Shown: piece by piece, positions 13,228 through 46,683 of the stretch | Numbering within the stretch: the first letter of the stretch is position 1 | Layout of the letters: each line of letters opens with the position of its first letter | Program-made: the position numbers and the translations under genes | From: a virus | Lineage: Duplodnaviria > Caudoviricetes | DNA: 64,000 nucleotides | Strand: one strand, 5' to 3' | IMG/VR virus record: IMGVR_UViG_2643221568_000002 | Span: 12,333 to 76,332 of that record | The notes under the pieces: model-generated | The model's database searches: none | Seen by the model: only the letters and a program-made list of their open reading frames with translations | Told to the model about the DNA's origin: nothing

Positions 13228-13416
13228 ATGTTGCGACTTGCCGTGAAGCTGGGGGACGCGGTGCGGATCGAAGGTTTTGGCCTGATCCACGTCGAAGAGA
13301 AGTCGGGGCGCAGCGTGCGCCTCGGCTTCGAAACGGATCAAGGTCCGATCACGATTATCAAGCGGGAAGACACTGAGGCCGCACTCACGCGGCGTCAGCA
13401 GCACATGGTTTACTAG
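13228..13416 (+). CDS. csrA: CsrA/RsmA-like RNA-binding protein (divergent)
   Basis: MLRLAVKLGDAVRIEG...VEEKSGRSVRLGF...ITIIKRED aligns by eye with CsrA MLILTRRVGETLMIG...VKGNQVRIGV...VSVHREE; 62 aa; AGGAG RBS. Confidence 0.7.
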   Translation: MLRLAVKLGDAVRIEGFGLIHVEEKSGRSVRLGFETDQGPITIIKREDTEAALTRRQQHMVY

Positions 13417-13709
13417 GGCGCGCCGCTAAGGTGCGCTTTGCACTTTTCCCAAAATTCTTCGCATTTCTGGGTGGCGATGCGGGCGTTCGCTACCCATCCT
13501 GTGTTAGGGAGCGGCGGCGAACCACGGAACGGTTTTGGGTACCATCCAGACCACTGCCATTTGCCTTTTGTCAGGCCGTGCATTTCCTTCCTGATGCGGC
13601 CCAGCGCGGATTCGCCGTCGTAGCCAGTCCAATCATAATCGGTCGGCGGGTCGCTTGCGTCTATCTGCGTTCGGCGCCACTGGTATTTGGGCTGATACTT
13701 GGTCGTCAT
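13413..13709 (-). CDS. Hypothetical Trp-rich protein (moron-like, convergent with the csrA-like gene)
   Basis: 98-aa ORF MTTKYQPKYQWRRT...GRIRKE...WQWSG with protein-like composition, filling an intergenic gap. Confidence 0.7.
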   Translation of the reverse strand: MTTKYQPKYQWRRTQIDASDPPTDYDWTGYDGESALGRIRKEMHGLTKGKWQWSGWYPKPFRGSPPLPNTGWVANARIATQKCEEFWEKCKAHLSGAP

Positions 13710-13743
13710 GTGAAACCCTTGATATATTCCAAGAACACCGCCG

Positions 13744-13772
13744 TTGATCGCCTTCGTCTAAGCTGGTATCAA
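13744..13772 (+). promoter_or_regulatory. Putative sigma70 promoter
   Basis: TTGATC-N17-TATCAA upstream of leader element copy 1. Confidence 0.45.
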
Positions 13773-13789
13773 ATCGAGATGTAAACTCG

Positions 13790-13822
13790 GCGCATGAGTG
13801 CCCTCGCAAGGATAACGCGATG
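13790..13822 (+). promoter_or_regulatory. Late-gene leader element copy 1 (GCGCATGAGTGC plus RBS-pairing hairpin)
   Basis: GCGCATGAGTGC at 13790-13801; CCT/AGG and CAT/ATG pairing with the RBS and start 13820; weakest stem of the five copies. Confidence 0.7.
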
Positions 13823-14134
13823 GCTCTCCCCTCTGTTCACATCATTTGCGGCTTTGCAGGCGGCGACGGCAACCAGCCGACGTCGAAGCAGGCGCTTCTG
13901 CGGCTCCCTCAGTGGTCGGAGGAGCCCGCCACCGGCGTGCCGACGACGAACGGCGCAGCTGATAACGGCGCGATGAAGCCGATCCTCCGCATCACCAACA
14001 CCGTGGACATCTACCTGAGTGTCGGAAAAGCGCCGAATCCGGCGATAAGCCCGCGTTTCGCACTTCGTGCGGTCGATGCCCCGCATGACATTTACGTCGA
14101 GCCCGGCGACAAGGCGGCTTGGGTGGCCGCGTAA
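13820..14134 (+). CDS. Small putative virion protein
   Basis: 104-aa beta-rich ORF with AAGGA RBS; coupled to the downstream spike gene. Confidence 0.65.
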   Translation: MALPSVHIICGFAGGDGNQPTSKQALLRLPQWSEEPATGVPTTNGAADNGAMKPILRITNTVDIYLSVGKAPNPAISPRFALRAVDAPHDIYVEPGDKAAWVAA

Positions 14135-16398
14135 TGGTCGGGCTGCGCCGGGCTCTTGGTCCACTTACTCTTCCCAGATCGTTGAGGAACCTTGCAAAGG
14201 GTAGGAGCAGGGCCAAACAAGTCGATTTGCCAGTCATCACCGCTGATCTCGTTGTTTACGGCGCGAACATCGGCGGCGAGTTTGGGAGCATCAAATTCGA
14301 TCGGCTTGCTCAAGCCGCGGCTATGGGCGTCAAGGTCGTAATCATCAACGACATGCCGGTCGATCGTGCCCATGGCATGATGATGGCGATCCTCAACTTC
14401 GATACTGACATAGCGCGCGGCAAAGGTGTCCAGCGCGGCATAGGCAATGAACTTTTTCGGCGACTTGCAAACCTGTATTTGAGCGGCGGCCTGGCACAAG
14501 AAACATTCCTCGCATCATCGAATTATGGTTCTCGGCCCGACTTCATCAAGCCGACGCTTGATGCAATGATGGCAGAACACCCGAACATCACCTTCTATCA
14601 TGATGAGCCACTCGTATCCGTTCAGAAGAGTGGCACACGCATTACCAGCCTCAGAACCGCTAAGCGAGAATACCGGGCGACCACCTACATCGACAATCAC
14701 TACTGCCTTGATCTTGCACCAGCAGCTGGGTGCGACACCTTTATTGGCCGCGAGTCGTCGGCTGAGTTTGGTGAAAGCAACGCGGGCATACGGCCCCCAA
14801 CCAACGCATTCTCCGTCAACATCAGCCCCTACAACATCCCCGGCAACCCGGCCAGCGGGCTCCTTTACGGCATTCGTGACGAGGCATATGGCAATGTCGG
14901 CGACGCCTCTCTCGATGTCCAGGCTATGGCCTATAGGCAATGGGATTATGCTGCTGCGAATACCCAAAGCCCAATGCCAGTCGGTTACGATGCTTCGCGA
15001 TACACTCTCGCCAAACGCAACATTCTAGCACGTGGGCTCACCTCTTTTGCCCAAGTCGTCACGCTCTATGTCGTTCGTCATGGCAACGACGTAAACTCGA
15101 ATGGCGGCAGTTCTGGCGTTGGACAGGCATTCAATTTCACCGGCCCAGAAATCCGCGAGTACATCACCGCCACACCAGCACGCCGTAAGGAAATCGAAAA
15201 GCTCGTAATGGAGTGGTGGCTTGGCTACCTCTATTTCCTGCGCACGGATACCGACCTGCCATCCGCCATTCGCACGGGTGCCGCGGCGGTAAGGGTCATG
15301 AACACCTCGATTTGGCCTAACACGCCAGACTATCCAGGGTTCAACCCTAATTTCTATGTGAGGCAGGGACGGTTGCTGCGCGGCGACAAAGTTTTAACGC
15401 AGCAAGACGTTGTGAACGCTCGACCGGCATGGCCGACACCTGATCCATACGAAGCAATTCAAATTGGACGCATTACCTATGCCGGAGACCGCCACTGGTC
15501 TCGCACGCTGGTGGTGGACGATGCAACCGCAGTCGACGGCAAGCGTGTGGTAAACGAGGGCGGCATGGCCATCGCCACTCGGGTGGGAGAACCGATCCCA
15601 GCATGGGTCTTGTGGCCCAAGAAGAGCCAGTGTTCCAACCTCCTGAGCACGTTCGGAATCAGCGCGTCGGCCATAGCGCATGGATCCACCCGCATGGAAG
15701 GCCTCTCCATGCACTTCGGTGAAGCTTGTGCGGTCCTGGCTTTTATGCAGATCAAAAACCCGAGCCTGGACATTCAAGATATTCTCGGCAGTTTCGATGC
15801 CAACGGAAACTACATCATCAACGAGGCTCGTGTTGCAGAGTTTCGGAAGCTGCTGGACTTCTGGAACGTCTACGACACCAATGGGGGCGCTGTCGTTCCT
15901 GTCCCGTCAACCTATCCTTCGCCAAATGTGCCGCCGAACGTCAACGGTGGCACAGTCACAAGCACCGGGACGTGGACGACGCCGTCTGGCGCGCCGCAGT
16001 TCACTATCCCGTTCGGCTCTGCCGTTGGGCAGGCGGGGGCAACAAAGCGCTTCCAGCCGAAGCTAGAACAGACCGGTGTTTACGAGGTCCGTCTAAGTTG
16101 GGCGGTATTCACGGGCAATGCCAGAAACACAGCGACGATAGTCCGCGTGGTTCACGCCGGAGGCACATTCTCAACAACAAAGAACCAGAACGCTGGGAGC
16201 ATCGATACGGGTGATTGGGGCTATGTCGGCCCGCGCCCGACGACAGGAACGGCTGCTGAACGTGACGCTGGCGAGATTGCCGCGTCTCGCTTCACCTTCA
16301 ATGCCGGCGATCCGAGCGAACACTACGTCGAGATCGAAGTGCCATCGTCAGGGGGGACAGGAACTATCGCAGCGGTCAAGTTCATCAAAGTCGCATGA
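14134..16398 (+). CDS. Putative tailspike/appendage: FAD-dependent oxidoreductase-like domain plus Golvesin/xanthan-lyase-type C-terminal carbohydrate-binding domain
   Basis: ADLVVYG, TFIGRESSAEFGES, FYVRQGRLLRGD, ISASAIAHGSTRME match the FAD_oxidored family; C-terminal FQPKLEQTGVYEVRLSW...VVHAGG...NQ...FTFNAG is Golvesin-like. Confidence 0.65.
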   Translation: MVGLRRALGPLTLPRSLRNLAKGRSRAKQVDLPVITADLVVYGANIGGEFGSIKFDRLAQAAAMGVKVVIINDMPVDRAHGMMMAILNFDTDIARGKGVQRGIGNELFRRLANLYLSGGLAQETFLASSNYGSRPDFIKPTLDAMMAEHPNITFYHDEPLVSVQKSGTRITSLRTAKREYRATTYIDNHYCLDLAPAAGCDTFIGRESSAEFGESNAGIRPPTNAFSVNISPYNIPGNPASGLLYGIRDEAYGNVGDASLDVQAMAYRQWDYAAANTQSPMPVGYDASRYTLAKRNILARGLTSFAQVVTLYVVRHGNDVNSNGGSSGVGQAFNFTGPEIREYITATPARRKEIEKLVMEWWLGYLYFLRTDTDLPSAIRTGAAAVRVMNTSIWPNTPDYPGFNPNFYVRQGRLLRGDKVLTQQDVVNARPAWPTPDPYEAIQIGRITYAGDRHWSRTLVVDDATAVDGKRVVNEGGMAIATRVGEPIPAWVLWPKKSQCSNLLSTFGISASAIAHGSTRMEGLSMHFGEACAVLAFMQIKNPSLDIQDILGSFDANGNYIINEARVAEFRKLLDFWNVYDTNGGAVVPVPSTYPSPNVPPNVNGGTVTSTGTWTTPSGAPQFTIPFGSAVGQAGATKRFQPKLEQTGVYEVRLSWAVFTGNARNTATIVRVVHAGGTFSTTKNQNAGSIDTGDWGYVGPRPTTGTAAERDAGEIAASRFTFNAGDPSEHYVEIEVPSSGGTGTIAAVKFIKVA

Positions 16399-16566
16399 AC
16401 CTCACTAATCTCACCTAGTTTGCCTCGCTCACCTTGAGACTTGCGGGGTTTACTTTTGCTAACCAGTATCGAAATCAGGACGCATAAAGTATTATTTCCG
16501 GCCCAATAGACTAGACAGGAACTGACCAATCTAGCAGTGTAGCTCCCGATTATATAGCTGGGGACT

Positions 16567-17610: not shown

Positions 17611-17631
17611 GGTAACTGCTTTTCCTACGTC

Positions 17632-17657
17632 AAGGCTCGATTCGGTGGCCTTTTTTT
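17632..17657 (+). terminator. Rho-independent terminator after the acyltransferase
   Basis: AAGGCT...GGCCTT stem followed by a T-run. Confidence 0.55.
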
Positions 17658-17784: not shown

Positions 17785-17823
17785 GCGCATGAGTGCGGCT
17801 TCTCGATAGGAGCCCACGCATGC
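17785..17823 (+). promoter_or_regulatory. Late-gene leader element copy 2 (darB-like leader)
   Basis: GCGCATGAGTGC at 17785-17796; GCATG-A-GTG-C-GGCTTCT-cgat-AGGAGCC-CAC-G-CATGC buries AGGAG and ATG 17820; TATAAC at 17764. Confidence 0.8.
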
Positions 17824-20800
17824 CAATCGTTATCGGACTCGGCGATGATGCCGAGTGGAAAGACCCGCTCAACCTTTTCGGCGGCGAAGCACCGGGTCTA
17901 GCGCCTTTAACCGGTAATGTAGATCAACAAAAAACAGACCAGAATATGCGCGTTTCTATGCCTGAAGGCATGTCAGAGCGCGATTGGAACGACACCGTCA
18001 ACACGGTGATTGCCGAGGCCGCGGGCGAGGGCGATGAGGGAATGGCGGGGGTCGCCCACGTCATTCAGAACCGTTCGAAGATTCGCGGTCAGTCGATCGG
18101 CGATGTCGTCAGAGATCCAGACCAGTTCACAGGCTATTCCAAGCCGGGCCCCAAAGCGCAGGAAGCAATGCGCGACCCGCAAATGCGGGCGAGGGCGGAG
18201 AACATCGTCCGATCGGTGATGGCGGGAAAAGGAGAGGACCCGACTGGCGGCGCAGATCACTACCACGCCGACTATGTCAGCCCTTATTGGGCGAGGTCCA
18301 TGGCCGAGACGAAGCGCATCGGCAATCACCTCTACTACAATTCCAAGGCAGGCAATAAGCCGCTCAGCTCCGAGACCGCGTTCGTTTCAGAGAATGATGG
18401 TTTGGGCCTATTGGGGCCGAAAGGCCAGTTTGGAGACCTGCTGAAAGGTGAACCTTCCGGCCAGACGAAGCCAAAAGGAAGAGGGCTGGCTGACCTGCTC
18501 CCCAAGGATCAGTTCGATGCCGATCCCGACAGCGAGAAGAGTTTTGACACGCTGATTTCGAAGCTTCAGCCTGGGAAGCCCAAGAGCTACATCACCGATA
18601 TGCAGCCGCAGCTGCGGAATGGCCTGACAGCCATGTTCGAGAACGCGCCGGATTACGTCAGAGAAGGCCTTGATCTGCTATCTGGCGCGCGCTCGCCAGA
18701 ACGGCAGGCACAGATCATCGCCGACCATGCCAACAAGTACGGTTTCGATCGTGAAGCTTGGGTTGCCGACGTCGAGAAGCTCGGACCGGTAGAGGCAGGA
18801 AAGAAATGGCGCCCGCAGTTCAGAGCGATCGGGCTGACGAGAAACATCGGGATGCCGGGGACGTCCAAACACCAGACCGGTGAAGCCGGCGATCTGGGCT
18901 GGAAGGGCAAAGCCTTCTCCAGCGCGCCGAGGGAAGTCCGCGAGTGGGTCCACGCGAATGCAGGAAACTTCGACCTGCGTTTCCCTATGGCGCACGAGCC
19001 TTGGCACATCGAGCACATCAATGCTCGCAGCGGAAAGACCGATGGTTCCGCTGTTCTCGCTACCGCTTTTGTTGACCAAAAAGGCGACGATGCCGACCGC
19101 TCACTCAACTCTACGAATAGCGACCAGAACATGAACCGTACTGCTATCGTCATGGACGAAAATTATAAAGCTGGCGACGCTTTCGGCCTCTTTTCCGGCG
19201 CCACGAACCCGCTTGAGGCAGAGGCGAAGGCGACAGCCCAGGCCCGCACCGATGCTGCAGCAGCCGAGGCGCAGCGGGTCGAGCAAGAGCGCGTCGCGGC
19301 AGAAACAGCAGCCAACAATCAGTCCGTTGATGCCCGCATAGCGGACGGCAAGGGTCGCTATGTGGCGGTCAATGAGAGCGAGCTACCGGACTGGCAGAAG
19401 CAGTGGGACGAAAAGAACCGCTCGTCCGGCATCGTTGGCGATATCGTCCGGCGCTTCGGTATGGGCGCTGGTAGCACCAGCCAGTCCATCAACAACCTCA
19501 ATCGGCTTATCGTCTCCAAATTGCCTGGTGGCGACGGGATCAACGAGGCGCTCGATGGGATTGACCGCTGGTGGGCTGGAAAGACCCAGAACGAGCAGAC
19601 CCAAGAGAGTATCGATCGGATGTCTGGCAGTCTTTCGCCAGAAGGCGAGGCGGCTCGAGAGAAGAAGTGGTGGGACGAAGAAAACAAGACGCTCGGACCG
19701 GCGTGGAAAGATCCGCGAAGCTATATCGGCACCATTGCTGAAAGCGCCCCTGCGACGATTGCCACTATGGCACCTTCGGGCCTGCTCGCTCGAGGCTCCT
19801 TTATGGCCGCACGGGCAGCTGGCGCAACGGCAGAGGCCGCAGCAGCGACCGCCGCAAAGACAGCAACGATCGCCGGGGGCATCTCAGAAGGTCTTTTGGG
19901 CGGTGCAGATGCTGCTCTGTCAGTCAAACAGCGCATTGCTGAAATCCCGCGTGAGCAGCTTGTCGCCTCAGAGGCAGTAAAGCAGCTCGTCCAGGGCGGA
20001 TTGTCGGAAGACGACGCCATCAAAGCGCTCAGTGAAGATGCTCAGGTGCAGGCCATGCTCACGGCTGGTGTCATCACCGGAGCCTTTGGCGGTATGGGTG
20101 ACCGCGCGCTCGCGAAGATCATCGCAGAAGGCGTAGAAGGGGGTATTGCCCGACGGATTGGCGTCGGTGCGGCGAAGGGAATGGTTGGCGAAGGCATCTT
20201 CGAAGAAGCGCCGCAAAGCGCAGGCCAGACCATCGCCGAAAACGCTGCGGTAGCGCGCGTGAAGCCTGATCAGGATCTGACGGAAGGTCTGGGCGAATCC
20301 GTGGCGAGCGGCGTTGCAGCTGGTGGCGCGATGGGCGGCGGGATGGGTGCCGTCGGGGGCGTCGCTCGTCCGGCCGCAAGCAACACAGGCGCATCCCCAG
20401 AGGCTGGGCAGGCAGCCCCGGAACCAACAGCGCCAGTCGAGCCAGATGACCGCGGACCTCTTCGTCGAGCAGCTGATCACGGCCAGCAGCGCCAGGCAGA
20501 CCGCGGGGCAGCCGCGAATGCTGGTGTCCCGATCGATGGCCGTCCCGGCGTCAAATCCACCGTGCGCGTCGAAGCTGAAGGCGTTGAGCCTTTCATGGGC
20601 ACGGTTGAAGGTTACGAGGGCGACGAGGCCGTCGTGGTCGATAGCGGAAGCGGGGAAGTCTATCAGGTGCCGTTGGCGAATCTGACCGAGATTGCCCCTC
20701 CGGTCGCTGACTACCAGTATCCGGAAAAATCCCAAGACGGGATGCCTGAGCACTCGGCAGACCCAGCGCTGGAGCCATTGCCGCCCATGTCGGCGGAGGT

Positions 20801-33098: not shown

Positions 33099-33100
33099 CG

Positions 33101-33128
33101 AAAAGCGCCGCAGATGCGGCGCTTTTTT
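33101..33128. terminator. Bidirectional rho-independent terminator
   Basis: AAAAGCGCCGCA-GA-TGCGGCGCTTTTTT between convergent genes. Confidence 0.9.
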
Positions 33129-33153
33129 GATTTATGCTGGACTTTCTAGTGGG

Positions 33154-34488: not shown

Positions 34489-35648
34489 GCTGCTTTGTCC
34501 TTCTGAGTTTTAACCTTTGGTACAGAACCCTTGCGGGTGGCGGCTTCGGAGCCGCCGAGGCCGATTGCTTCGATGACAGCGTCCAGCTTGTTGTCGACGT
34601 CCTGGACGGCCTTCATTGTGATACCGATCGCATCCTGCGCAGCGATGTTCTGCCCGTCGCCCAAGCCAGTCTGCTTGGTGAAGTCTTGGGCATAGGTGCC
34701 GATGTGGCGCCCTTCGTCGGCCACGCCTTCCTTATAGTCCCAAGCCTCAACAGGCATTGCCTTCAGCGCCTCGAGCGCTTCGCCGTCTTCGATGGTCTCT
34801 TTGTTCTCTTTCGCGTTCTCGTCTGACTTGAATAGCAGCCCGCCGATTCCGCCCAAAAAGCTGCCGATGCCTTGCGCCCCAGCCGCATTCATTTGCTGCT
34901 TCGTCTTCCAAGCGTCCAGCTGCAGGCCATACTGCTGGTTCAGCGTGCTCGCCTGGCCAGCATATCCCTGCATAGCACCGCTAAATCCAGAGTTCATGAT
35001 GGTGGAAGCAGCAAGCGCCTGGCCGTTCGTCGCTTGGTTGCCCGATAGAGCGGTACCGCTCGCCGCGACGCTGCCGCCAGCACCCGCAGCGGCCTGCGCT
35101 GGCAAGCCTTTCCCGAGGTTAACGACGTCGGCCTTCAGAGCGAGCGCCTTATCCCTTACGCCCTGCCTTGCCGTATTGGCCGCGCCAGCTTCAGCAAGTG
35201 AAGCGCCGAGGTCAGAGGCTGCCTGGACACCGGCAAATCGACCGCTGCCGGGTGTGACACCCATAGAAGCATTGGCGCGCTCTGTGGCCGCGCGATTGGT
35301 TGCTGCTGCGGTCTGGACGTCGGCGCGGGCCTCTGCAGCTGCTTCTGCCTGCTTGGCCTCGGTACCGTAATTTTTGGCCTCATTGATGAACTCGTCTTCA
35401 ATGGGCTTGTAGACGCTCTCATAGCGGGCACGGTCCTCTTTCGACCATTTAGCCTGGTCAGTCGCGAGGCCGAGCTGCTGTTCGGTGACTTTGTTGGTGA
35501 GGGCGTCCAGCTCTTTCTGGCGAACTTCGGATACCGCGAAAGCATCCTTGGCGAACGCAAGCCAGTTTTCACCGGTCTGCGCCTGCATGAGAGCGGCTTT
35601 GCCAATCTGAGGATCTGGTGCTGGTGCTGAATTGCTGCTTTTGCCCAT
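34485..35648 (-). CDS. Ala/Gly-rich ejection (pilot) protein with a C-terminal peptidase S74 chaperone-like domain
   Basis: MGKSSNSAPAPDP start; KSDENAKEN...LEALKAMPVEAWDYK...HIGTYAQD is S74-like. Confidence 0.7.
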   Translation of the reverse strand: MGKSSNSAPAPDPQIGKAALMQAQTGENWLAFAKDAFAVSEVRQKELDALTNKVTEQQLGLATDQAKWSKEDRARYESVYKPIEDEFINEAKNYGTEAKQAEAAAEARADVQTAAATNRAATERANASMGVTPGSGRFAGVQAASDLGASLAEAGAANTARQGVRDKALALKADVVNLGKGLPAQAAAGAGGSVAASGTALSGNQATNGQALAASTIMNSGFSGAMQGYAGQASTLNQQYGLQLDAWKTKQQMNAAGAQGIGSFLGGIGGLLFKSDENAKENKETIEDGEALEALKAMPVEAWDYKEGVADEGRHIGTYAQDFTKQTGLGDGQNIAAQDAIGITMKAVQDVDNKLDAVIEAIGLGGSEAATRKGSVPKVKTQKDKAA

Positions 35649-35684
35649 AGTGCTGCCTTCTGGTGAGGGTCAGCGCTCATGCGC
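35646..35684 (-). promoter_or_regulatory. Late-gene leader element copy 3
   Basis: Minus strand GCGCATGAGCGCTGACCCTCACCAGAAGGCAGCACTATG; GCTG/CAGC, AG/CT and CAT/ATG pairs cover AAGG and start 35648. Confidence 0.75.
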
Positions 35685-35694
35685 AATTTGCTAT

Positions 35695-36147
35695 CTATAT
35701 ATCGCGATGCCCGGTTTTTCCAGCGAAGCGTTCTGGTAGCCAGCGGCATTCCTCTCGCAACATACCGTAGACAATCAGATCTTCGCCGGCGTCGCCGGCC
35801 TTACGCATGAGACCTTCGCGCTTGAAGCCGAAATGCTCGTTAAATCTGATAGCATCGGCATTGTTGACCGAGACAAAGCTGTTGAGGCGAGGGTAGGCAA
35901 GTTGGATAAAGGGGTAGGCAAAAACCTTGATGATCAACTCGCGCGTGATCCAGCGCCGGCCGCCATCGGAAACGACAGATACCCAACAGCCGCGGGTGGT
36001 GAAGGAATCGAAGACAACAATCCCGTGGACGTCGTCGCCCGTGCATATTGCAATGGCCTTTGCGTCGTCGCGAAAGCTCAGCTTGCCGCGCTTAGCTGCT
36101 AGCGCCACCAGCTCGTCACTCGGCGAGTAGATAACCTGCTTCTTCAC
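35695..36147 (-). CDS. GNAT-family acetyltransferase
   Basis: FAYPFIQL...VSVNNADAIRFNEHFGFKREGLMR...DLIVYGML. Confidence 0.85.
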   Translation of the reverse strand: MKKQVIYSPSDELVALAAKRGKLSFRDDAKAIAICTGDDVHGIVVFDSFTTRGCWVSVVSDGGRRWITRELIIKVFAYPFIQLAYPRLNSFVSVNNADAIRFNEHFGFKREGLMRKAGDAGEDLIVYGMLREECRWLPERFAGKTGHRDI

Positions 36148-36386
36148 CGTAGAAGCTTCCCCTGCAAGGCTTGAGCGACGGCGTTAAGCCGGTTCGATAT
36201 CTCCTTGATGTCCTTGAGCAAGGAGTTGAAGTCGTCTGGGGTCGGTGCCGCCGTCACCTCTTTCGTCTTCACCTGGGCGAGCTGGAGCAGCTCACGCACG
36301 TCCTCGAGCCGAACAGCGGCTCGCTCTCGCGACCCGGAGCGTGAACCGTCAAGCACTTCGAGCTTTTCGATGTGATTTGGCTGCAT
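36144..36386 (-). CDS. Hypothetical virion-associated protein
   Basis: 80-aa coupled ORF with APTPDDFNSLLKDI. Confidence 0.65.
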   Translation of the reverse strand: MQPNHIEKLEVLDGSRSGSRERAAVRLEDVRELLQLAQVKTKEVTAAPTPDDFNSLLKDIKEISNRLNAVAQALQGKLLR

Positions 36387-36388
36387 CG

Positions 36389-38122
36389 TTAGACTCGCAG
36401 TTCATCGACGGAGGTCGCCAAGGATATGGATCCGATCGGGATGTTCGACTGAACTGCTATCTCCCAGCAGCGCGCGTTTTTCGCCGCCAACCGGCATACG
36501 GAACCGATTTTGGTTGCGGTACCGACGAGCACGCCGTCAGCAAACACACTGATGCTCGCCGACATGGGGGCAGGTAGCGGTAGGAGGGCGTCGTCGGCCA
36601 GTACCATCTCTCCGAGAGCGCTGTCATTGACAGCCGACATGAGGTGCCCAGACGCAAATATCACAGCGTTCTCTGCGGTTATTCTCGCTCGCTCGGCTTC
36701 GATCCTGGCACCATTGCTCGCGTCGCCGATCGAGCCCTGATCCACCAGAATTGCGCCAAACGTGCCAGGCCGCGGCATCCAGAACTCTTTCGAGCGCCAA
36801 GAGTAGCGCTCCGGAAAACCTGCCGGATCATCAAAACGATAGACGTTTGTGTCTCCGGGCCGCTTAAAGAAAAGCGCCGAGGTCTCGATGTCGAAAAACA
36901 CTGCATCGGCGGTCTCGCCGGATCGGGTAAGGAATGGCGCGGCGTTGATGTTGATGAATAGCGCGCCGGCAGATCTGTTCCCAGCGACGTCTGTCTTGTC
37001 ATAGAACATCAGATAAATGTTGCCATGCTGAGCGCCAAGGGCGGTCTGCGGGGAAAGCGCCTGCCACTCATCGCGGCGGAATAGCTGTTCCGTGACGAAA
37101 TCGACCTCTCCCGATGCTCTGACGGAGACCAGCCCGTCATTGCTGGGGTAGCAAATAGCGAAGCCCAGATCGACGATGCCGCGGGCATTTATGCAGGGGA
37201 AATTCGCCTCTAGCTTTACAGCCTGCATGGAATCGGGGTGAGAGCCGGTCATCATGTAGGGGTTCGCTTTGGTCAGCACCACGAGAACCGCACCGATGGA
37301 GGCAAGACCGACAACATCGCTGTCGCATGCCATGACATACTTTTCAGGCCAGGCATGGGGGCGCCATGGTTCGCAGAAGTAGACATCGCGCCCGACAAAC
37401 GCTGCCATCATACCGTTGGGCATCGACGTGATGCCAGACAGGCCGTCTTTGGGCTCATCCCAGCCAGCTGACGGTAAAGCTTCCTGAAACGCGTCTACAG
37501 CAATATTGTCGACGAAGTCGCTGGCCGATGCTGCCCGTTCTTTGATCAGGTAAAGATATGTGCCGCTTGATCCGGTCTGCGACCGGTAGATGCGTTGAAG
37601 AGTGATAGATCTGCCCGCAGGCGCAGCAGCGAAACCGCTCAACGTGACGGTTTGACCCGGCTTCCAGTCCACGCGCGGAGACGCGGGGGATGGCGCGGTC
37701 TCCTCGCCGAAGCTCGTCACGAAGGTGTAGACGTAGGTGCGCGTCTGGGTATCGCCTGTGCCCGCTCCTCCAACGGCTGCTGCCAGTGCCGAAGTGGGGC
37801 GAGGGACGCGTAGCGGGTAAACGGCGTTCGCAATGCGGACCTTGGGGGCGCCGTCGCCGGTGTAATAGAGGCGGTCCTGCGCTACAGGGCCGGGGACTGC
37901 ATCAACGTCGGTAGGCCACGACAGCCATTCGCCCTGGTGACGATAAATCGTCTTTGCGCCAGTGGTGACGCTTTCGCCGGTTTGCAATGAACCGTTGATA
38001 GGCGTCAAACCGCCGTCGTCGAGACGCACGCCGATCGCTTCTGTTGCGGCCGTTTCGGGCAAAAGACGCGGGATGATCAGCGGCTTTTCGCCGGCAAAGG
38101 CGGACAGGGTAATACGAGCCAA
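36389..38122 (-). CDS. Podovirus tail nozzle/stabilisation protein
   Basis: 577 aa, beta-rich; TRTYVYTFVTSFGEETAPSP, RIYRS, FCEPWRPHAWP; GGAGG RBS with TTG start. Confidence 0.7.
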   Translation of the reverse strand: MARITLSAFAGEKPLIIPRLLPETAATEAIGVRLDDGGLTPINGSLQTGESVTTGAKTIYRHQGEWLSWPTDVDAVPGPVAQDRLYYTGDGAPKVRIANAVYPLRVPRPTSALAAAVGGAGTGDTQTRTYVYTFVTSFGEETAPSPASPRVDWKPGQTVTLSGFAAAPAGRSITLQRIYRSQTGSSGTYLYLIKERAASASDFVDNIAVDAFQEALPSAGWDEPKDGLSGITSMPNGMMAAFVGRDVYFCEPWRPHAWPEKYVMACDSDVVGLASIGAVLVVLTKANPYMMTGSHPDSMQAVKLEANFPCINARGIVDLGFAICYPSNDGLVSVRASGEVDFVTEQLFRRDEWQALSPQTALGAQHGNIYLMFYDKTDVAGNRSAGALFININAAPFLTRSGETADAVFFDIETSALFFKRPGDTNVYRFDDPAGFPERYSWRSKEFWMPRPGTFGAILVDQGSIGDASNGARIEAERARITAENAVIFASGHLMSAVNDSALGEMVLADDALLPLPAPMSASISVFADGVLVGTATKIGSVCRLAAKNARCWEIAVQSNIPIGSISLATSVDELRV

Positions 38123-38153
38123 AACTAGCCTCCTTGCTCACGCGTGCGAAGCG

Positions 38154-38570
38154 TTAGGCCACCATGGCCTTCACCCACATCTCGTCCACTTTGGCAGGAG
38201 ATAAAGCTAGCGCCTGTGCGATCAGCAGAAGCGTGGGGTGATTCCTGTTGAAGCTTTGAGCATCGGCCCATTCGATCTTGGCCTCTTCCTTCTGCAATCC
38301 CTCGGGCATCGCCTCTATGAGCGCCTCCACACCTGCGAGGGCAATGCCTTCGCGAACGAGCGTTAGGCGGAGTTGACGCCGAGTGACAGGAGAGAGAACG
38401 ACCTCGGGCGTAAAGGGGAGCCACGCGCCGTCCTTCCAGACTTGCCGGGCATCCTGCGGAGAGGTCGGCACCTCAACACCCGCCGACAACTCGGGGGGCA
38501 GGTTCTCAGTGGGGCCATCGTAGCTGCCGATATACGCGCCTTCTTTATCGACAAAAAACCGCTGTTTCAT
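38154..38570 (-). CDS. Tail fibre assembly/associated protein
   Basis: Directly after the tail fibre gene; VTRRQLRLTL...IEWADAQSFNRNHP. Confidence 0.6.
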   Translation of the reverse strand: MKQRFFVDKEGAYIGSYDGPTENLPPELSAGVEVPTSPQDARQVWKDGAWLPFTPEVVLSPVTRRQLRLTLVREGIALAGVEALIEAMPEGLQKEEAKIEWADAQSFNRNHPTLLLIAQALALSPAKVDEMWVKAMVA

Positions 38571-40021
38571 AGCCACGCCCTCACTTTCAGTTTCCAGCTC
38601 GCTACTGTGAGACCGAATAAGACCCCGGTAGACCAGTTACCGACTACGCCAATGCCTCCGGTGCCTACCTTGCCGTAAACGTTGGATGCGTCTGCTTTAA
38701 GAGCCACGCCGTAGCTGCCGTTTCCGCCGTTGACAGCCCATTGATGGTCAACTCGAATTTCGTCACCTACCGAGTACCCCTGATCCGCTGTGGCGCACAC
38801 GAGATAGCACTCAAGTCTTTTAGGTTTCGCGCCAAGAGGATGGGCGAGCGTCAGGTTTCCGCCCGCCGCAATGGTCTGCTCACTACTTGCCCAGCCCGCC
38901 TGCTTGTCTGTCAGACTGGAGAGATTTGCTGTCAGTGTCTGCACGCTATTGGTCAAGGCCGCGAGGTCCAAGCTCCCCGGCACTTGATCCGCCGCATATG
39001 CCTTGATCCAGTAGGTAAAGGTCTTGTTGACCGGACGCGTTTCGGCAGCAACGCGTGGGGTGCCATTGTTGCCGTCCGGTAGGGTTGGACCGTGTCCGTT
39101 AGCCTGCGGCTGAGCGACGTTCGTCACGTCGTCATATAGTTGGTAGACGGTGTTGTATTGATTGTTGTTGACGACAGCAGAACGGTAGCCCCCCGCCGCT
39201 AGGTTGACGGGATGCCTGTGGCCCTGAAGCGCGTCCTGCTGCGCTGAACCGAATACACGCCCACTGTCTACAACCTGACCAGAACGCCAGCCGCGCGGAA
39301 AATAACCGCCCATGTCTTCAATGATCGGGTTGCCGCTGCCATCGACGCTCGCCCCATTCGCCAACAACCAAGCTCTGAGCTGGGGGTAGGCGGTAGTGCA
39401 AGGGGCGCCATTATGGAGAAGAAAGCCAGGCGGTGGGGTGCTCCCGTTGCTTTGCATCATGATCGTAGTGCCGATAGGCAGCTCGATCTGTTGGACTTTG
39501 GTCGTGAGGTTCGTTATCGCGGTGTTCACGTTGGCTAAGGCGGTTGCCATAGTCGTCGCGAACTGGGGATCATTTCCTAATGCGTCAGCCAGCTCCTTGA
39601 GTGTGTCCAGCGTAGAAGGCGAGCTGGCGACTAAGTCAGCGATCTTTTGTTGAATGAGCGCAGTCATCGTTGCGGTGTCGGCTTTGTCATCCAAGGCGGT
39701 GTCAACGCTAGCGATCGAAGTCACCAGGTCGGCGATCACTGCATTGGTCACCCTGATGTCGATTCGAGAGCCAGCAGGAAACTCCTTCGCCGTTGTCCCC
39801 TCCTGCGCGCGCAGCAGGGTAAGGGTCGGCCCAGTGCGTGCAGTAACTCGCACGATTTCGCGATTGCCCGCTGCGTCGACGATAGTGGCGGGGTGCCAGT
39901 CACCGACGGTAAGCACCGGGAATTTACCCGCGTCACCGTTCTGGATCGACAGCGTCGTCGCGTCCAGCGTGATCGACGATGCCAGGGTTGAAATAGCAAG
40001 GTTGGCGAGCTTGAGTGCCAT
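38567..40021 (-). CDS. Tail fibre protein
   Basis: N-terminal EIVRVTAR..LRAQEGT anchor, LDTLKELADALGNDPQFATT, collar-like PPGFLLHNG..FPRGW..GSAQQDALQGHRH..ETRPVN. Confidence 0.9.
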   Translation of the reverse strand: MALKLANLAISTLASSITLDATTLSIQNGDAGKFPVLTVGDWHPATIVDAAGNREIVRVTARTGPTLTLLRAQEGTTAKEFPAGSRIDIRVTNAVIADLVTSIASVDTALDDKADTATMTALIQQKIADLVASSPSTLDTLKELADALGNDPQFATTMATALANVNTAITNLTTKVQQIELPIGTTIMMQSNGSTPPPGFLLHNGAPCTTAYPQLRAWLLANGASVDGSGNPIIEDMGGYFPRGWRSGQVVDSGRVFGSAQQDALQGHRHPVNLAAGGYRSAVVNNNQYNTVYQLYDDVTNVAQPQANGHGPTLPDGNNGTPRVAAETRPVNKTFTYWIKAYAADQVPGSLDLAALTNSVQTLTANLSSLTDKQAGWASSEQTIAAGGNLTLAHPLGAKPKRLECYLVCATADQGYSVGDEIRVDHQWAVNGGNGSYGVALKADASNVYGKVGTGGIGVVGNWSTGVLFGLTVASWKLKVRAWL

Positions 40022-40647
40022 CAGTAATAGCTCCCCTTGGTTCGTGGGCGGGCGCCCTGTTGGCCTTTGGCGACTTTCATGGGGAGACTGTCGAGAAATG
40101 CGGCGAATTCGCTCTGCAACAGCGTTCCCATCTGCGGATTGGGCCCTGTGTCATCTGTCGGCAGCATCAGGACACGCGCCGCCGCGCCTTTTCCGATCTC
40201 GGTGCCATAATTGTCGACGAGGAAATCTGGAAGCGTGAGGGCAGATCTCGAGGGTTTCAGGATAAGCCGAACATTCAACGTCCCTGCATTGAACGGGACG
40301 ACTTGGATCACACCAGGCTTGATCTGAGTGATGAACCGGGATGTGGCACCGGTTGGTTCTTCCTCGTCCCAGCCTGGAGAATTCTCGTCGAGCCATTCCG
40401 GTGTCTGCGGGGTGAGCGGGACACCATTGATGGTTGCTTTCTCGATACGAACGATCTCCGCGTCCGTTACCGACGTCAGTTCGCTTCCTTCGTCATCGTC
40501 GATCGTGATCGAGGTGCGCTCGCGCCAGAGATCGACCTTCTCGCAGATGGCGCGTGCCGCCTCACGAAGGTAACGCACAGCGGCAGGATCAGAACAGTTT
40601 GGCGCGTGGATCAGGACTTCAGGAAGCAGCTCGTCGATGTCGCGCAT
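40021..40647 (-). CDS. Head-tail adaptor-like virion protein
   Basis: 208 aa, coupled; position between adaptor and tail fibre. Confidence 0.6.
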   Translation of the reverse strand: MRDIDELLPEVLIHAPNCSDPAAVRYLREAARAICEKVDLWRERTSITIDDDEGSELTSVTDAEIVRIEKATINGVPLTPQTPEWLDENSPGWDEEEPTGATSRFITQIKPGVIQVVPFNAGTLNVRLILKPSRSALTLPDFLVDNYGTEIGKGAAARVLMLPTDDTGPNPQMGTLLQSEFAAFLDSLPMKVAKGQQGARPRTKGSYY

Positions 40648-41351
40648 CAGCGCCTCCTATTCGGATTTGCTGCGGTTTCGACCTGTACCTTGATGCCGAT
40701 CGCTGCGGCGAACATCTGGTAATGGGAGAGTGCCTTGTTCGGGTCGCCGGCAATGTCATCTTTGGAGAAAGCACGGAACAGCACATAGTCAAGCAGTGGA
40801 ACGGAGTAGGGCTCTGGTAGACCTGTCTCAACATTCCATGCGTCGAGCGTCGCCTCGTCCGTGTTTGCGATGGGTGAGACCGGGGCAGGGAGGTAGGATA
40901 TCGCCGCTTCGACTATCCCGGTGCCGTCATTGCCTGGGTAGGAGTAGAACTCGAGCGGCAAGTTCTCGTCGAACACGACCTGGCGCACTTCCTTCCGGAA
41001 TGGTTGAGCGGTGGGGCTGTGCCAGTTCGGCTCCTGTGCATCCAGCAGCGCTCGAGCCGCCGTCCGGATTGCCCTGCCACCAATGCGGTTTGGGCCAGCA
41101 TCGACGAGGTTGCGATTGACCCCAAGAAGCTGCAAGGGCGTCACACCATCGATAGTATCCGGCAGAACGTGATGCGTTCCAGCGCCCAGCGCGATCGGTG
41201 CGGTCTTTGAGGATGATGATGGCTTTGCGAGAATGACGGCCTTGACGGCTTCATTCAGCCAAGCGGCCAGCTCTGGGAGAGGCCAGCGCACATACTCCTG
41301 ATCAAGGAGCTGGACGCCGGCGTTCTTTAGGATGTCTTTTGCCTTCGGCAT
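40647..41351 (-). CDS. Head-tail adaptor (DUF6682-like)
   Basis: LLDQEYVRWPLPELAAWLNEA...FYSYP...LLDYVLFRAFSKD. Confidence 0.7.
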   Translation of the reverse strand: MPKAKDILKNAGVQLLDQEYVRWPLPELAAWLNEAVKAVILAKPSSSSKTAPIALGAGTHHVLPDTIDGVTPLQLLGVNRNLVDAGPNRIGGRAIRTAARALLDAQEPNWHSPTAQPFRKEVRQVVFDENLPLEFYSYPGNDGTGIVEAAISYLPAPVSPIANTDEATLDAWNVETGLPEPYSVPLLDYVLFRAFSKDDIAGDPNKALSHYQMFAAAIGIKVQVETAANPNRRR

Positions 41352-41354
41352 AGA

Positions 41355-41766
41355 TCACGCTTTGCTGGTTGCGCGGGCCTTTTTCGGCTTGACTTCAGGG
41401 GCAGGGGCAACACCTTCTTCGGTGCCTTCGGTGCCTTCGGTGCCTTCGGTGCCTTCGGTGCCTTCGGTGCCTTCGGTGCCTTCGGTGCCTTCGGTGCCTT
41501 CGGTGCCTTCCTTCGGTGCCTTCGGTGCCTTCGGTGCCTTCGCCTGGCGTTCCGCCGCTCAGAAACGCGGGGAGTTCAGTTTCTTCCGGCTGCTCTGGCA
41601 CCAGCGGAACTTCACGGTAGTGCTGTACATTCAGGAAGATCGAACGATGAAGCATGCTGCCAACGTCGTTGACGAAGCGGCCATATTCATCGCGTTCGAA
41701 ATAGTATGACGTTCCGCCGATGGTCTGTTCGGTATAGCCGGTGGTGCACTCGATGACTGTCTTCAT
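41355..41766 (-). pseudogene. Small virion-module gene frameshifted within a (EGT)n repeat (true frameshift or assembly error)
   Basis: Reads MKTVIEC...GEGTEGTEGTEG then slips to (RHR)n at a partial repeat unit; the EGT frame continues EEGVAPAPEVKPKKARATSKA* to 41355, just before the next start at 41351. Confidence 0.65.
41417..41541. repeat. 9-bp tandem repeat (CTTCGGTGC)x13 with one internal 4-bp partial unit
   Basis: 10 units 41417-41506, CTTC 41507-41510, 3 units 41511-41537, CTTC. Confidence 0.95.
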
Positions 41767-41780
41767 GACAAGCTCCTTTG

Positions 41781-41803
41781 AAAAAGGGGGCTCGCGGCCC
41801 CCT
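41781..41803 (-). terminator. Rho-independent terminator after the capsid and decoration genes
   Basis: Minus strand AGGGGGC-CGCGA-GCCCCC-TTTTT. Confidence 0.8.
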
Positions 41804-41825
41804 CATTGATGCGCCGTGACGGCTG

Positions 41826-42287
41826 TTACTCAGAGACGAGGAAGACGGTCAGACCCATCTGTCCGGCCACGAACGTTGCGGCTGCCGCCGTGAACTTGAT
41901 GCCGATCGAGCGATCGTTGTTCGCGGAGCTGGTGCGGTAGGCGCCCTTAGTCAACGGGCGAGCCGCGACACCGTTCTGAGAAATCGTCGAACCGGCGAAG
42001 AACTCATTGCCGCACGTGCGTGCCTGGTTCTCTTCGCCGAAAGAGCCGCTCATGATGCCGACGTCGAAGGCAATCGTCGGCGCGGCGTTCGAATCGAGAT
42101 CGTCGCTGTCAGCGATGATTTCAGCGACACGGCAGTTGGAGGGGATGCAGGCAAGCTCCAGAATGTCGCCAACGGCTGGGTTGGCGGCGATCTGGTGCGA
42201 GAAGCGGATAGCGACCACTTCGCCAGCGGTGGATGGGTAGGAAATGGCTTCCGTGCCCTTGGCATATTTGCTCTGAATGAGCGTCAT
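41826..42287 (-). CDS. Capsid decoration/minor capsid protein
   Basis: 153 aa, beta-rich (GDILELACIP..DDLDSN..FDVG), directly after the major capsid gene. Confidence 0.65.
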   Translation of the reverse strand: MTLIQSKYAKGTEAISYPSTAGEVVAIRFSHQIAANPAVGDILELACIPSNCRVAEIIADSDDLDSNAAPTIAFDVGIMSGSFGEENQARTCGNEFFAGSTISQNGVAARPLTKGAYRTSSANNDRSIGIKFTAAAATFVAGQMGLTVFLVSE

Positions 42288-42362
42288 CTCGAAAGTCCTT
42301 CAGGTGGAAGGGTCGCTAAGACCGATGGAAAGGTGAAAGCCCGACCGAAGCCGGGCCAATCG

Positions 42363-43460
42363 TTAAGCGTTGGGGTCCTTCGCGGCGGTATCGACCGAGA
42401 TCACACCATAATCGCGACCGTTGAAGCGCGTCTTCTTCACACCGGCGATGACACCGGAAGCGACGACGGGCTCGTTACCGTGGTCCTTGGTTTCTTCCGT
42501 CCATGTGTAACGGAAGCCACCGGCAGAGCCGAACGCGATGACGGCGGCTTGGCGGCCGATGAAGAGTGCGCGGCCAGCTTTGACGTTCCCGCCAGCACCG
42601 TAGTCACCAAAGCGGATTGCCCACTCGTGGCTGTGAAGCACAGTGTTGTTGACCATGCCGAGGCCACCCTTGAAGATCGGATTATTCCGTCCTTCTGCCG
42701 TCGCCGCTGCCTTCTGGATTTCAAGCCAGCCACCGGCGTCGTTGGTGCGCAGGTCATGTTCCTGGAACGGGTTCATGACCATGACGTAGTGCGCTTCGCC
42801 ATTGATCATGATCGGCATCATGTTGGCGTTCTTCGGGTCTTTGGCCGACATCATGCGGGCCTTGACCTGTGCGCGCTCGATCAGCGACCGGGACATGATG
42901 TCCGACGCATCGATCGAGGCCTTAGAGGTGGCGTCGCCACCGTACAGGATGTGATCGGCGTCGGGCGCCTCGATCGGGTTTTCCGCGTGGCCGGTCCATT
43001 CAACCGACTCGATGAAGTCTTCGTTGGTGCCGCGCGAGCCGGACAGGTAGATGAAGGTCATCTGGTCGTTGAATTTCGACCAGTAGTCAGAAAGGCGGTT
43101 CTTGCCGATCTGGCGCATGTTGTGGGCGGTGCGCTTGCGGGACATTTTGCCGCCAGCAGAAACACCGTGGCGCATCTGGTCAATCTTCAGCTGGTCGCTG
43201 AAGAAGCGCAGGCTCTCTTCCTTGCCTTCCAGGCGGTTGTCGCCGTAGGTAGGCTTGTTGCGGAGCTGGACGGACAGGTCGAAGGTGATGGTATCGCCGG
43301 CTTCCGATTCGAGATCGGTAAGACGCTGGATCGCGAATTCGTCAGACGTGCCGACGAACTTACGGTCGAAGTAGCTCTTCTTGGTGATGTCAATGAAAAG
43401 CCCACCAGACCACTTTTTCTGGGCTTTCGGATCGCCAAAGGCAACCACGGTCTTGGTCAT
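42363..43460 (-). CDS. Major capsid protein, N4-gp56/DUF4043 family
   Basis: IQRLTDLESEAGDTITFDL...LEGKEESL...IDQMRHGV...NPIFKGGLG...DYGVISVDTA; start at ATG 43460 behind GGAG. Confidence 0.9.
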   Translation of the reverse strand: MTKTVVAFGDPKAQKKWSGGLFIDITKKSYFDRKFVGTSDEFAIQRLTDLESEAGDTITFDLSVQLRNKPTYGDNRLEGKEESLRFFSDQLKIDQMRHGVSAGGKMSRKRTAHNMRQIGKNRLSDYWSKFNDQMTFIYLSGSRGTNEDFIESVEWTGHAENPIEAPDADHILYGGDATSKASIDASDIMSRSLIERAQVKARMMSAKDPKNANMMPIMINGEAHYVMVMNPFQEHDLRTNDAGGWLEIQKAAATAEGRNNPIFKGGLGMVNNTVLHSHEWAIRFGDYGAGGNVKAGRALFIGRQAAVIAFGSAGGFRYTWTEETKDHGNEPVVASGVIAGVKKTRFNGRDYGVISVDTAAKDPNA

Positions 43461-43501
43461 GAGTGATGTCTCCGGTTCAGGAACAAACAGCACTCATGCG
43501 C
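43457..43501 (-). promoter_or_regulatory. Late-gene leader element copy 4 (major capsid leader)
   Basis: Minus strand GCGCATGAGTGCTGTTTGTTCCTGAACCGGAGACATCACTCATG; CATGAGTG pairs perfectly with CACTCATG containing the start codon, TGTTT pairs with AGACA of the RBS. Confidence 0.8.
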
Positions 43502-43572
43502 ATTGATACTCTGATTACTGGAAATGCTGGATTGTTGCAACACGTAACGCGTGATACTGGAGGAGATCGCTA

Positions 43573-43610
43573 GCGCATGAGTGCGGCCTCTTCTTCGGAG
43601 CGCACACATG
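43573..43610 (+). promoter_or_regulatory. Late-gene leader element copy 5 (lysis operon leader)
   Basis: GCGCATGAGTGCGGCCTCTTCTTCGGAGCGCACACATG; CATG/CATG, GTGCG/CGCAC and CTC/GAG pairs bury GGAG and ATG 43608. Confidence 0.8.
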
Positions 43611-46669: not shown

Positions 46670-46683
46670 GCTTGTTCTCACGA

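Follow-up and report, generated by a model that had tools for sequence, protein, structure and literature searches.

The stretch of DNA analysed here (the window, 64,000 nucleotides (nt), bases 12333-76332 of a 76-kb IMG/VR provirus record) holds an Agrobacterium-type prophage in which a 12-nt box, GCGCATGAGYGC, lies ahead of five genes, and in which a 62-amino-acid (aa) open reading frame (ORF; P0001) of the CsrA family closes the rightward string of packaging genes, as had been predicted and as the gene map confirms (Table 1). The closest named relatives are Agrobacterium phage Atu_ph08 (75% nucleotide identity in the packaging region) and Sinorhizobium phage PBC5, with Bcep22-like phages of Burkholderia and Ralstonia farther away. 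The box occurs exactly five times in the window, compared with a shuffle mean of 0.07 (maximum of 1 in 100 shuffles), and the entire provirus has the same five copies and none of a reversed-pattern control. Copies with up to two mismatches showed no excess over chance (29 found, 29.9 expected). An exact search and reading of the sequence bear out the original prediction that every copy lies between genes, in the sense orientation and 30-41 nt ahead of a start codon. One of them had been assigned to a spike unit; the box is there, but the first gene after it is the 104-aa gene at 13820, and the spike-like 759-aa protein comes second. Four of the five leaders have the same 12 bases despite pairing with different partners. 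We propose that the box is an RNA switch and, more tentatively, that the phage's own CsrA-family protein reads it to activate late translation.

Table 1 The box copies, the csrA-like gene and other mapped features, in positions of the window
Feature	Position	Strand	Details
Box	13790-13801	+	30 nt from first base of box to ATG 13820 (104-aa gene); full leader, box to ATG, 13790-13822
Box	17785-17796	+	35 nt to ATG 17820 (DarB-like giant gene); full leader 17785-17822
Box, C variant	35673-35684	-	36 nt to ATG 35648 (virion structural gene); full leader 35646-35684
Box	43490-43501	-	41 nt to ATG 43460 (major capsid gene); full leader 43458-43501
Box	43573-43584	+	35 nt to ATG 43608 (endolysin gene); full leader 43573-43610
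62-aa CsrA-family ORF (P0001)	13228-13416	+	Final gene of the terS-terL-methylase-portal-322aa string
GcrA-like gene	3032-3649	+	Pfam PF07750, 44.2 bits (cut-off 26.9)
terS	7216-8037		Rightward string
terL	8037-9584		Rightward string
Methylase	9596-10018		Rightward string
P22-type portal	10020-12239		Rightward string
322-aa protein	12251-13219		Rightward string
phrog_12188 gene	13413-13709	-	Convergent with the 62-aa ORF
104-aa gene, then 759-aa FAD-oxidoreductase-like putative tail spike	13820-16398	+	
Acyltransferase			Between the spike unit (ends 16398) and the DarB-like gene (from 17820)
5100-aa DarB-like giant gene	17820-33098	+	
Capsid-to-virion-protein block	43460-33154	-	
Virion structural gene, phrog_8003	34485-35648	-	
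Lysis block, endolysin first	from 43608	+	
Integrase	45359-46681		Adjoins tRNA 46841-46927; marks prophage end

Homologous leaders in relatives carry the box as well. Our survey drew on 50 kb from the start of Atu_ph08 and of PBC5, one further piece and 17 of 39 related viral records. Atu_ph08 has the box at its DarB, virion-protein, capsid and endolysin leaders (four exact copies), and PBC5 has it at its DarB, virion-protein and capsid leaders (two exact, one with one mismatch), with a 13-nt form at the endolysin leader. The 17 further records have it in forms that fit GCG[CT]-A-[G/U/A]-GA-(N)-G[CU]G[CU]. In the rhizobial lineage the capsid block is relocated and the box heads four to six operons, versus one or two in other relatives. 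In PBC5 (L002, 961-972) and in the close relative G008 (C1:285), the start codon of the integrase lies inside an exact box copy (ATGAGTGC, read as Met-Ser-Ala), and a reader of the leaders could also act on int translation in these two; the integrase start of the window has no box.

Taken locally, the box folds into a 4-base-pair (bp) stem with a tetraloop, GCGC-AUGA-GYGC, with a predicted stability for the isolated hairpin of -3.2 kcal/mol (U form) or -5.1 kcal/mol (C form). The original prediction had drawn this alternative fold as GC-AUGAG(U/C)-GC; the hairpin holds, but not in that written form. By the rule of a stem of 4 bp or more closing a loop A-N-G(G)A-(N), 51 of 56 distinct capsid upstream regions drawn from 80 related loci have a hairpin, against 16 of the 56 reversed sequences and none of the 56 reverse complements. 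Its outer stems covary (gctgcgc/gtgcggt, gctccgc/gtggagc, atgagcgc/gtgctcat, ggtgc/gcgcc, gggc/gtcc and acgc/gtgt), and because their G.U pairs form in the sense RNA only, the constraint acts on sense RNA. The RNAalifold consensus of 17 capsid leaders is this same hairpin, with one GC to CG change inside the core stem. Conservation at homologous leaders and compensatory changes, both named beforehand as checks, were therefore found, and in having a hairpin with such changes the box resembles a CsrA operator. Even the most distant capsid relative (L083 in G033, 46% identity) has a GCGC-AAGAC-GCGC hairpin ahead of its capsid gene. An Rfam scan at gathering thresholds returned only the tRNA at 46841-46927, so no known RNA family covers the leaders.

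The loops of these hairpins link the box to a known class of operator. The loop is AUGA in the lineage of the window and AGGA, AGGAC, AGGAA, AAGAC, AUGAC or AUGAU in other relatives, and the most distant relatives have AUGGAU or AUGGAC, closed by C-G. The high-affinity CsrA/RsmE site has the consensus CANGGANG; since the AUGGAU and AUGGAC loops match it, the AUGA of the window looks like a derived variant from which one G has been lost. Canonical A(N)GGA loops at the same site in relatives thus support a tie between the box and CsrA-type recognition. Two further observations concern similar sequences elsewhere. In the beta-proteobacterial capsid leaders L043-L077 the Shine-Dalgarno sequence (SD) often stands in a (GC)AUGAGG context that resembles the GCAUGAG of the window box, and this may be a second binding site overlapping the SD. 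At 6029-6042 of the window a hairpin GCGC-AAGGAC-GUGC combines a box-like stem with a canonical A-N-GGA-N loop. It lies inside a 248-aa NERD/nuclease-like gene, at the conserved ..VEIKSRKD.. motif, and with that coding-region location was not counted as a leader; it could be chance or an internal site.

The minimum free energy (MFE) folds of the five window leaders show the other state of the box, in which it pairs with the start region and the AUG is paired in all five. The pairings named by the original prediction, CAUGAGUG/CACUCAUG for the capsid gene and GGCUUCU/AGGAGCC plus GCAUG/CAUGC for the DarB-like gene (darB), are present in these folds. The MFE is -21.8 kcal/mol for darB (z -2.48), where both SD and AUG are paired, -19.7 kcal/mol for gene 35648 (z -2.36), -19.8 kcal/mol for endolysin (z -2.04) and -17.9 kcal/mol for capsid (z -1.99). 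Among folds of the window leaders that keep the hairpin, even the best is 3.2-9.1 kcal/mol less stable than the closed state. The duplex between box and start beats all 12 control windows in darB (-15.7 kcal/mol) and capsid (-14.3 kcal/mol), whereas two of 12 control windows equal it in endolysin (-13.1 kcal/mol) and four of 12 in gene 35648 (-9.4 kcal/mol). Pairing with the start region had been claimed for every leader; it is clear for darB, capsid and endolysin and weak for gene 35648, and for gene 13820 it fails against both control windows and shuffles.

Blocking the box in silico released the start codon. The probability that the AUG is unpaired rose from 0.00 to 0.61 in darB, from 0.01 to 0.90 in endolysin, from 0.01 to 0.50 in capsid and from 0.03 to 0.55 in gene 35648, and in gene 13820 it went from 0.35 to 0.52. 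The box can hence hide the start codon in four of the five leaders.

Start-region pairing is also maintained across relatives. In 42 distinct capsid leaders the duplex between each box and its own start averaged -12.7 kcal/mol, compared with -9.47 +/- 0.40 kcal/mol when partners were permuted, a difference that none of 10,000 permutations reached. This set leaves out 11 of the 80 capsid loci that had no match to the motif pattern (L057, L058, L060, L062, L063, L072, L075, L076, L078, L080 and L081), seven of which carry a variant hairpin: L057, L058, L062, L075, L076 and L080 by rule, and L081, with a UGGA loop, by eye. Box and start partners change together, as GAGUG/CACUC, GACGUG/CACGUC, GAAGUG/CACUUC and, in leaders with a U insert, CAUGAUG/CAUCAUG, such that the optional base 3' in the loop (none, C or A) is answered beside the AUG by none, G or U. 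Of 18 leaders with no insert, 14 have an exact GAGUG complement 5-9 nt ahead of the ATG, and none has a complement of the insert classes there. The insert-C class follows the rule less strictly, with an exact complement in 4 of 18 leaders (6 of 18 when G.U pairs are allowed) and a helix often shifted to GUGCUG/UGGCAC. In a MAFFT alignment of 17 capsid leaders the anti-box falls out of register between insert classes; start-region covariation was measured by scripts instead.

A wider set of 64 non-identical leaders from 20 genomes gave a mean box/start energy of -12.9 kcal/mol, compared with -8.45 kcal/mol for coding windows (12 per leader; Wilcoxon P = 1.2e-9, a value that overstates independence because the leaders are related). 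Control windows paired as well or better in 142 of 760 cases, and 30 of the 64 leaders beat all of their own controls. Being self-complementary, CAUG lets the box of the window lineage pair with the start codon directly. In 39 leaders with a U loop, the AUG was unpaired with a probability of 0.06 when free, 0.58 when the box was blocked and 0.06 when a coding stretch of equal length was blocked; for 25 leaders with G or A in the loop the values were 0.47, 0.55 and 0.49. Together, sense-only covariation of the hairpin with G.U pairs and covariation with the start region support the view that the box acts as RNA, beyond any role as DNA only, and we regard it as very probably an RNA switch element with two mutually exclusive folds.

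A DNA-level alternative would make the box a late-promoter or initial-transcribed signal, read with a phage activator or a Q-like factor, and its pairing incidental. By eye, -10-like sequences (TATAAC, TATTTA or GATAAT) precede the boxes at 3-17 nt, mostly 10-15 nt, and from these we infer that transcripts start a few bases upstream of the box. No RNA sequencing run was listed as containing the stretch, and four RNA runs under the same species label gave 0 reads on 25600-45500, a result that bears neither on expression nor on transcript starts. TATAAC or TATTTA before each box and the lack of a good -35 are typical of activator-dependent promoters, and a strict E. coli-type scan found no complete promoter upstream of any box. 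A GcrA-like gene and a D12-class methylase gene are also at hand. However, the register between -10 and box is not fixed, no column upstream of the box is informative except a C at -2, and neither GANTC nor a shared GATC was seen on reading the five regions. The stems contain G.U pairs, their compensatory changes work on the sense RNA only (0 of 56 reverse complements), and the box covaries with a start region 20-45 nt away. It is, moreover, equally conserved in phages of beta-proteobacteria, hosts outside the GcrA group, although no GcrA search of those records was made; GcrA is described as conserved in Alphaproteobacteria in the accessible part of the Atu_ph08 paper (PMC6630229). The fixed -10 register and DNA function that mark a late-promoter or Q-type element were thus not found, the constraints being RNA-specific, and we consider this explanation very unlikely.

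Transcriptional control probably exists alongside the translational layer all the same. The original prediction saw no obvious late activator, and this has to be revised: upstream of the packaging genes, at 2640-4521, lies a row of GapR-like (PF10073, 102 bits), GcrA-like and D12-class N6-adenine methylase genes. The row is possibly a phage copy of the alphaproteobacterial GcrA/methylation transcription module, and its GcrA-like protein is, by its Pfam match, a candidate late transcriptional activator. The Atu_ph08 paper (PMC6630229) calls its orthologue, gp5, GcrA.

An upstream ORF was weighed as well. On this reading, ribosomes starting at the box AUG would translate a short ORF (Met-Ser-Ala...) and thereby open the helix or couple to the main start; ATGAGTGC does open 6-codon ORFs before darB (with the stop TAG within the SD) and before the capsid gene, and in PBC5 and G008 the integrase start falls inside a box copy. 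None of the five copies has an SD ahead of this AUG, however, and length and frame are unconserved, the PBC5 capsid and darB leaders reading on with no early stop. Nor is there any AUG at this site in relatives whose loop is AGGA or AAGA. We rejected this reading for its missing SD and unconserved frame and length, and rate it as highly improbable.

If the box is a switch, the phage itself encodes a suitable reader. P0001 matched the Pfam CsrA model PF02599 at 16.6 bits (E 0.0078) over residues 1-38 only, and six of the 39 related phage records exceed the Pfam CsrA cut-off, at 28.9-33.1 bits. A profile of 23 phage homologues headed by P0001 matched RsmE 2jpp (E 6.3e-12) and CsrA 1y00 (E 2.2e-9) over nearly the full length, with seven further CsrA entries at E <= 2.1e-5. 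CsrA proteins have five short strands followed by a C-terminal helix and pair as an interleaved homodimer. In the AlphaFold2 monomer of P0001 (predicted local distance difference test score, pLDDT, 79) strands were predicted for residues 11-14, 18-26 and 29-36, followed by a helix (46-54). In a Foldseek search with this model the top 11 PDB matches were all CsrA, RsmE or RsmA, at template modelling (TM) scores of 0.53-0.61 and with E-values that are weak (0.06-0.18) because the protein has only 62 residues. CsrA binds RNA through residues in strands 1 and 5, among them Leu2, Leu4 and Arg44, the Arg being critical; P0001 keeps the N-terminal ML.L and has IKRED where CsrA has VHREE. By profile and model, the 62-aa product is a diverged CsrA-family protein with a predicted CsrA-like fold, as first proposed. 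Its orthologues, Atu_ph08 gp17 and PBC5 orf39, are annotated only as hypothetical, an annotation that can be corrected to CsrA-family proteins.

Gene and hairpin are close neighbours in many relatives. The csrA-like gene is present in all 32 near-complete related records, 26 by Pfam and the other six of six by the phage profile, and no related record lacks both gene and hairpin. In 39 of the 80 capsid loci the csrA-like and capsid genes have the same orientation, with the former upstream, and in 33 of these 39 the gap between the gene and the capsid ATG is 64-144 nt, with the hairpin inside the gap in nearly all; four of the five capsid upstream regions that had no hairpin by the strict rule belong to those 33 loci. 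A hairpin at the 3' end of the csrA-like gene itself (13373-13398), complementary to the box and its 3' flank, was set aside as probably non-functional, since L114 and L118, the closest relatives, lack it.

The system appears to be private to the phage. Across 17 host genomes that carry related prophages (Agrobacterium, Rhizobium, Shinella, Mesorhizobium, Rhodobacterales, Xenophilus and others), none had a CsrA-family match away from a prophage; the six matches found all lie at or within about 40 kb of a prophage capsid gene, the one in G047 being assigned to the prophage by distance alone. The same search detected the E. coli, B. subtilis and T. maritima controls. Species of the B. cepacia complex and S. 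meliloti are likewise described as lacking a chromosomal csrA in the portion of that report available (PMC7366521). In five host genomes (G040-G044, 25.6 Mb), five prophage clusters hold 23 copies of the T form, and four more lie elsewhere. The C variant, GCGCATGAGCGC, is a common GC-rich word with 31 copies scattered over the same 25.6 Mb, one of these 31 in a cluster, and only the T form is diagnostic. The suggestion of a phage-private system thus gains support from both the hosts, which have no other CsrA, and the near confinement of the T form to prophage.

Several features point to one reader per genome. The loop base N is identical in 83 of 90 pairs of leaders within a genome, versus 43% between genomes, and none of 10,000 shuffles reached this (one coding-region match, L168, was dropped). 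This homogeneity, together with 12 identical bases despite differing partners, argues for a single genome-specific reader of the box. The leader could instead work in cis only or be read by a host factor, as a 5' stabiliser or attenuator that sets late levels while the CsrA-like protein acts on other RNAs. The closed helix alone would explain the start covariation, a loop U gives the self-complementary CAUG that is useful in cis, and the literature, in the sections available, treats phage csrA as host-directed (PMC9144972, PMC8450108); one relative, G033, even has the hairpin with no detectable csrA-like gene. Yet a pure cis arm could drift, whereas the 12 bases are identical in four of five leaders, in Atu_ph08 and in PBC5; the loops of relatives match the CsrA operator type, up to CAUGGAUG; and the hairpin directly follows the csrA-like gene at nearly all of the short-gap loci. 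The near absence of the T form from host chromosomes indicates that no host regulon uses the box. We judge a cis-only or host-read leader unlikely.

We tentatively favour a closed/open switch that is read by the phage CsrA-family protein and in which binding activates late translation. Each of five late transcription units would have the 12-mer near the 5' end of its leader RNA. When closed, the CAUGAGUG part of the box would pair at and just before the AUG of its gene and keep ribosomes from starting, with an adjoining hairpin covering the SD too in darB. In the open fold the box would close on itself as GCGC-AUGA-GYGC, this family's form of the CsrA-type operator hairpin. As reader, the 62-aa protein, last product of the packaging operon, is most likely; by holding the box as a hairpin it would free the start codons, so that capsid, DarB, virion-protein and lysis messages could be switched on together in a host that lacks CsrA. 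As the csrA-like gene closes the rightward string, activation would tie the translation of separately transcribed late operons, lysis included, to the packaging operon. The protein probably binds the box and, should it do so, activation is the likelier effect. The CsrA of E. coli activates ymdA translation by opening an SD-sequestering structure, as set out in the accessible part of PMC7492729; in the window, too, the start is occluded when no protein is present and the box overlaps the occluding strand, in silico. A bolder version, which we hold to be doubtful as a whole, adds that a phage-private Csr-like circuit replaces a Q-type late switch, with the protein, made only once transcription has run to the end of the packaging operon, licensing translation of all other late operons by capturing the 12-nt operator; that a GGA-to-UGA change in the loop lets this operator double as an anti-start-codon; and that the 'carbon storage regulator' genes of Bcep22-like phages, long unexplained, would owe a role in virion production to an ancestral gene-hairpin pair at the capsid gene.

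Several results weigh against activation by this protein. P0001 itself falls below the Pfam gathering cut-off of 27, and in the alignment several phage homologues have no Arg at the critical CsrA site (for example, ..VKVLANG..). The GGA expected in the hairpin loop of a CsrA operator is missing from the window, where the loop is AUGA in all five copies. The leader of gene 13820 folds no better than shuffles (MFE -14.4 kcal/mol, z -0.6), and its box/start duplex, the weakest of the five (-6.4 kcal/mol), is equalled by 10 of 12 control windows. Co-occurrence of gene and motif had been put forward as a test and does hold in all 32 near-complete records; because the gene is universal in related records, it does not discriminate. 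In G033 (L083; 58 kb, 89%-complete) the hairpin is present and the csrA-like gene not detectable, a minus-strand 349-aa gene lying upstream in its stead. The homogeneity of a loop U could reflect selection in cis for an anti-AUG and not a shared reader, and binding of the box in darB might leave the SD hairpin GGCUUCU/AGGAGCC intact. Every window leader, finally, has a GGA-type SD 12-22 nt after the box, the geometry of classical CsrA repression, and as the hairpins of beta-proteobacterial relatives are long, stable and unpaired with the start region, activation by opening cannot be the ancestral mode.

The last two points lead to a serious rival, namely classical CsrA-type repression or dampening, in which a dimer spans the box hairpin and the downstream GGA of the SD and blocks ribosomes. 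It might tune or delay synthesis of capsid, DarB and lysis proteins and be relieved by a structural protein, as flagellin mRNA is freed from CsrA by FliW. Dual-site CsrA binding follows a usual spacing between hairpin and GGA, and all five window SDs hold GGA or AGG at that spacing. In beta-proteobacterial relatives, where the start is unsequestered, only repression or stabilisation would be sensible. Most known CsrA targets are repressed, according to the part of PMC7492729 available, and a single peptide of the phage JC1 CsrA in virions, reported in the accessible text of PMC9144972, would fit a structural-protein partner. Against this, four of the five window starts are already closed by the box (AUG unpaired 0.00-0.03), which would make a repressor redundant; a single specificity would have to cover both an AUGA loop and GGA-bearing SDs; and a capsid repressor co-expressed with portal and scaffold is hard to rationalise save for fine tuning. 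Repression is the more natural reading for the beta-proteobacterial relatives; for the window we think it improbable and keep activation as the preferred reading.

Other features frame these transcription units. The boxed leader of gene 13820 falls in a divergent intergenic region, 13710-13819, given that the gene at 13413-13709 is on the minus strand. At 33100-33127, between the convergent DarB-like gene and virion-protein block, a strong 12-bp GC-rich terminator hairpin is followed by a T run (the plus-strand site only was reported). The tRNA at 46841-46927, beside the integrase, is the likely attachment site, and a second integrase directly after it (47005-48159) opens another mobile element that fills the rest of the window.

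Parts of the proposed switch have parallels in known systems. As with ymdA (PMC7492729, in the part available), a CsrA-family protein on a 5' leader would destabilise a ribosome-blocking structure; here, the blocking helix has the proposed binding site as one of its own strands, the protein is phage-encoded and would act on the phage's own late genes through one identical box for five operons, the loop is AUGA in place of GGA, sequestration covers the AUG and not (only) the SD, and the case is known from sequence and folding predictions. CsrA/RsmE operators such as RsmE-hcnA (2jpp) and glgC carry A(N)GGA in a hairpin loop. The box shares their short GC-closed hairpin with a GGA-bearing SD downstream, and distant relatives have exactly CAUGGAUG, AGGAC or AGGA loops; the window is one G short, its host has no Csr system or decoy small RNAs, and those operators usually repress. 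The MS2 coat protein, with its replicase hairpin, and T4 RegA are repressors with unrelated folds whose operators overlap the start itself. Like them, a small phage protein is proposed here to read RNA at the phage's own translation starts, and the likeness ends with their repression, folds and operator positions. In Bacillus subtilis, the Hag-FliW-CsrA system likewise controls the major subunit of a self-assembling structure through leader sites (PMC6529632, accessible part); that system represses and we identified no FliW-like partner here, so the analogy is conceptual only.

The nearest parallel is the 'carbon storage regulator' of Bcep22-like phages (Lessievirus, JC1 gp47), described in the available parts of PMC9144972 and PMC7366521. 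It belongs to the homologous gene family and has the same place, between portal/scaffold-like genes and the capsid gene. In the rhizobial lineage, by comparison, the box has spread from one leader to four to six, and a conserved cis element has been found beside the gene. Phage csrA has been called a moron of unknown benefit or a possible anti-defence tool, with no target named in the accessible text of these sources (PMC9144972, PMC7366521, PMC8450108), and the Atu_ph08 paper (PMC6630229) does not mention CsrA. We found no published account of the hairpin or of a phage-internal csrA target in the literature searched, a scope from which supplements and the 2011 Bcep22 paper were excluded.

Phage csrA-like genes have been catalogued for 15 years, with no target named in these sources. 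A covarying, operator-like hairpin beside the gene gives a concrete hypothesis that is cheap to test, namely that the protein controls the virion and lysis proteins of the phage itself. If true, a translational late switch would join the known transcriptional ones (Q, late sigma factors and activators), and the family would include a CsrA-type protein with an altered, non-GGA specificity. It would also offer an orthogonal RNA-protein pair for Alphaproteobacteria, which lack CsrA.

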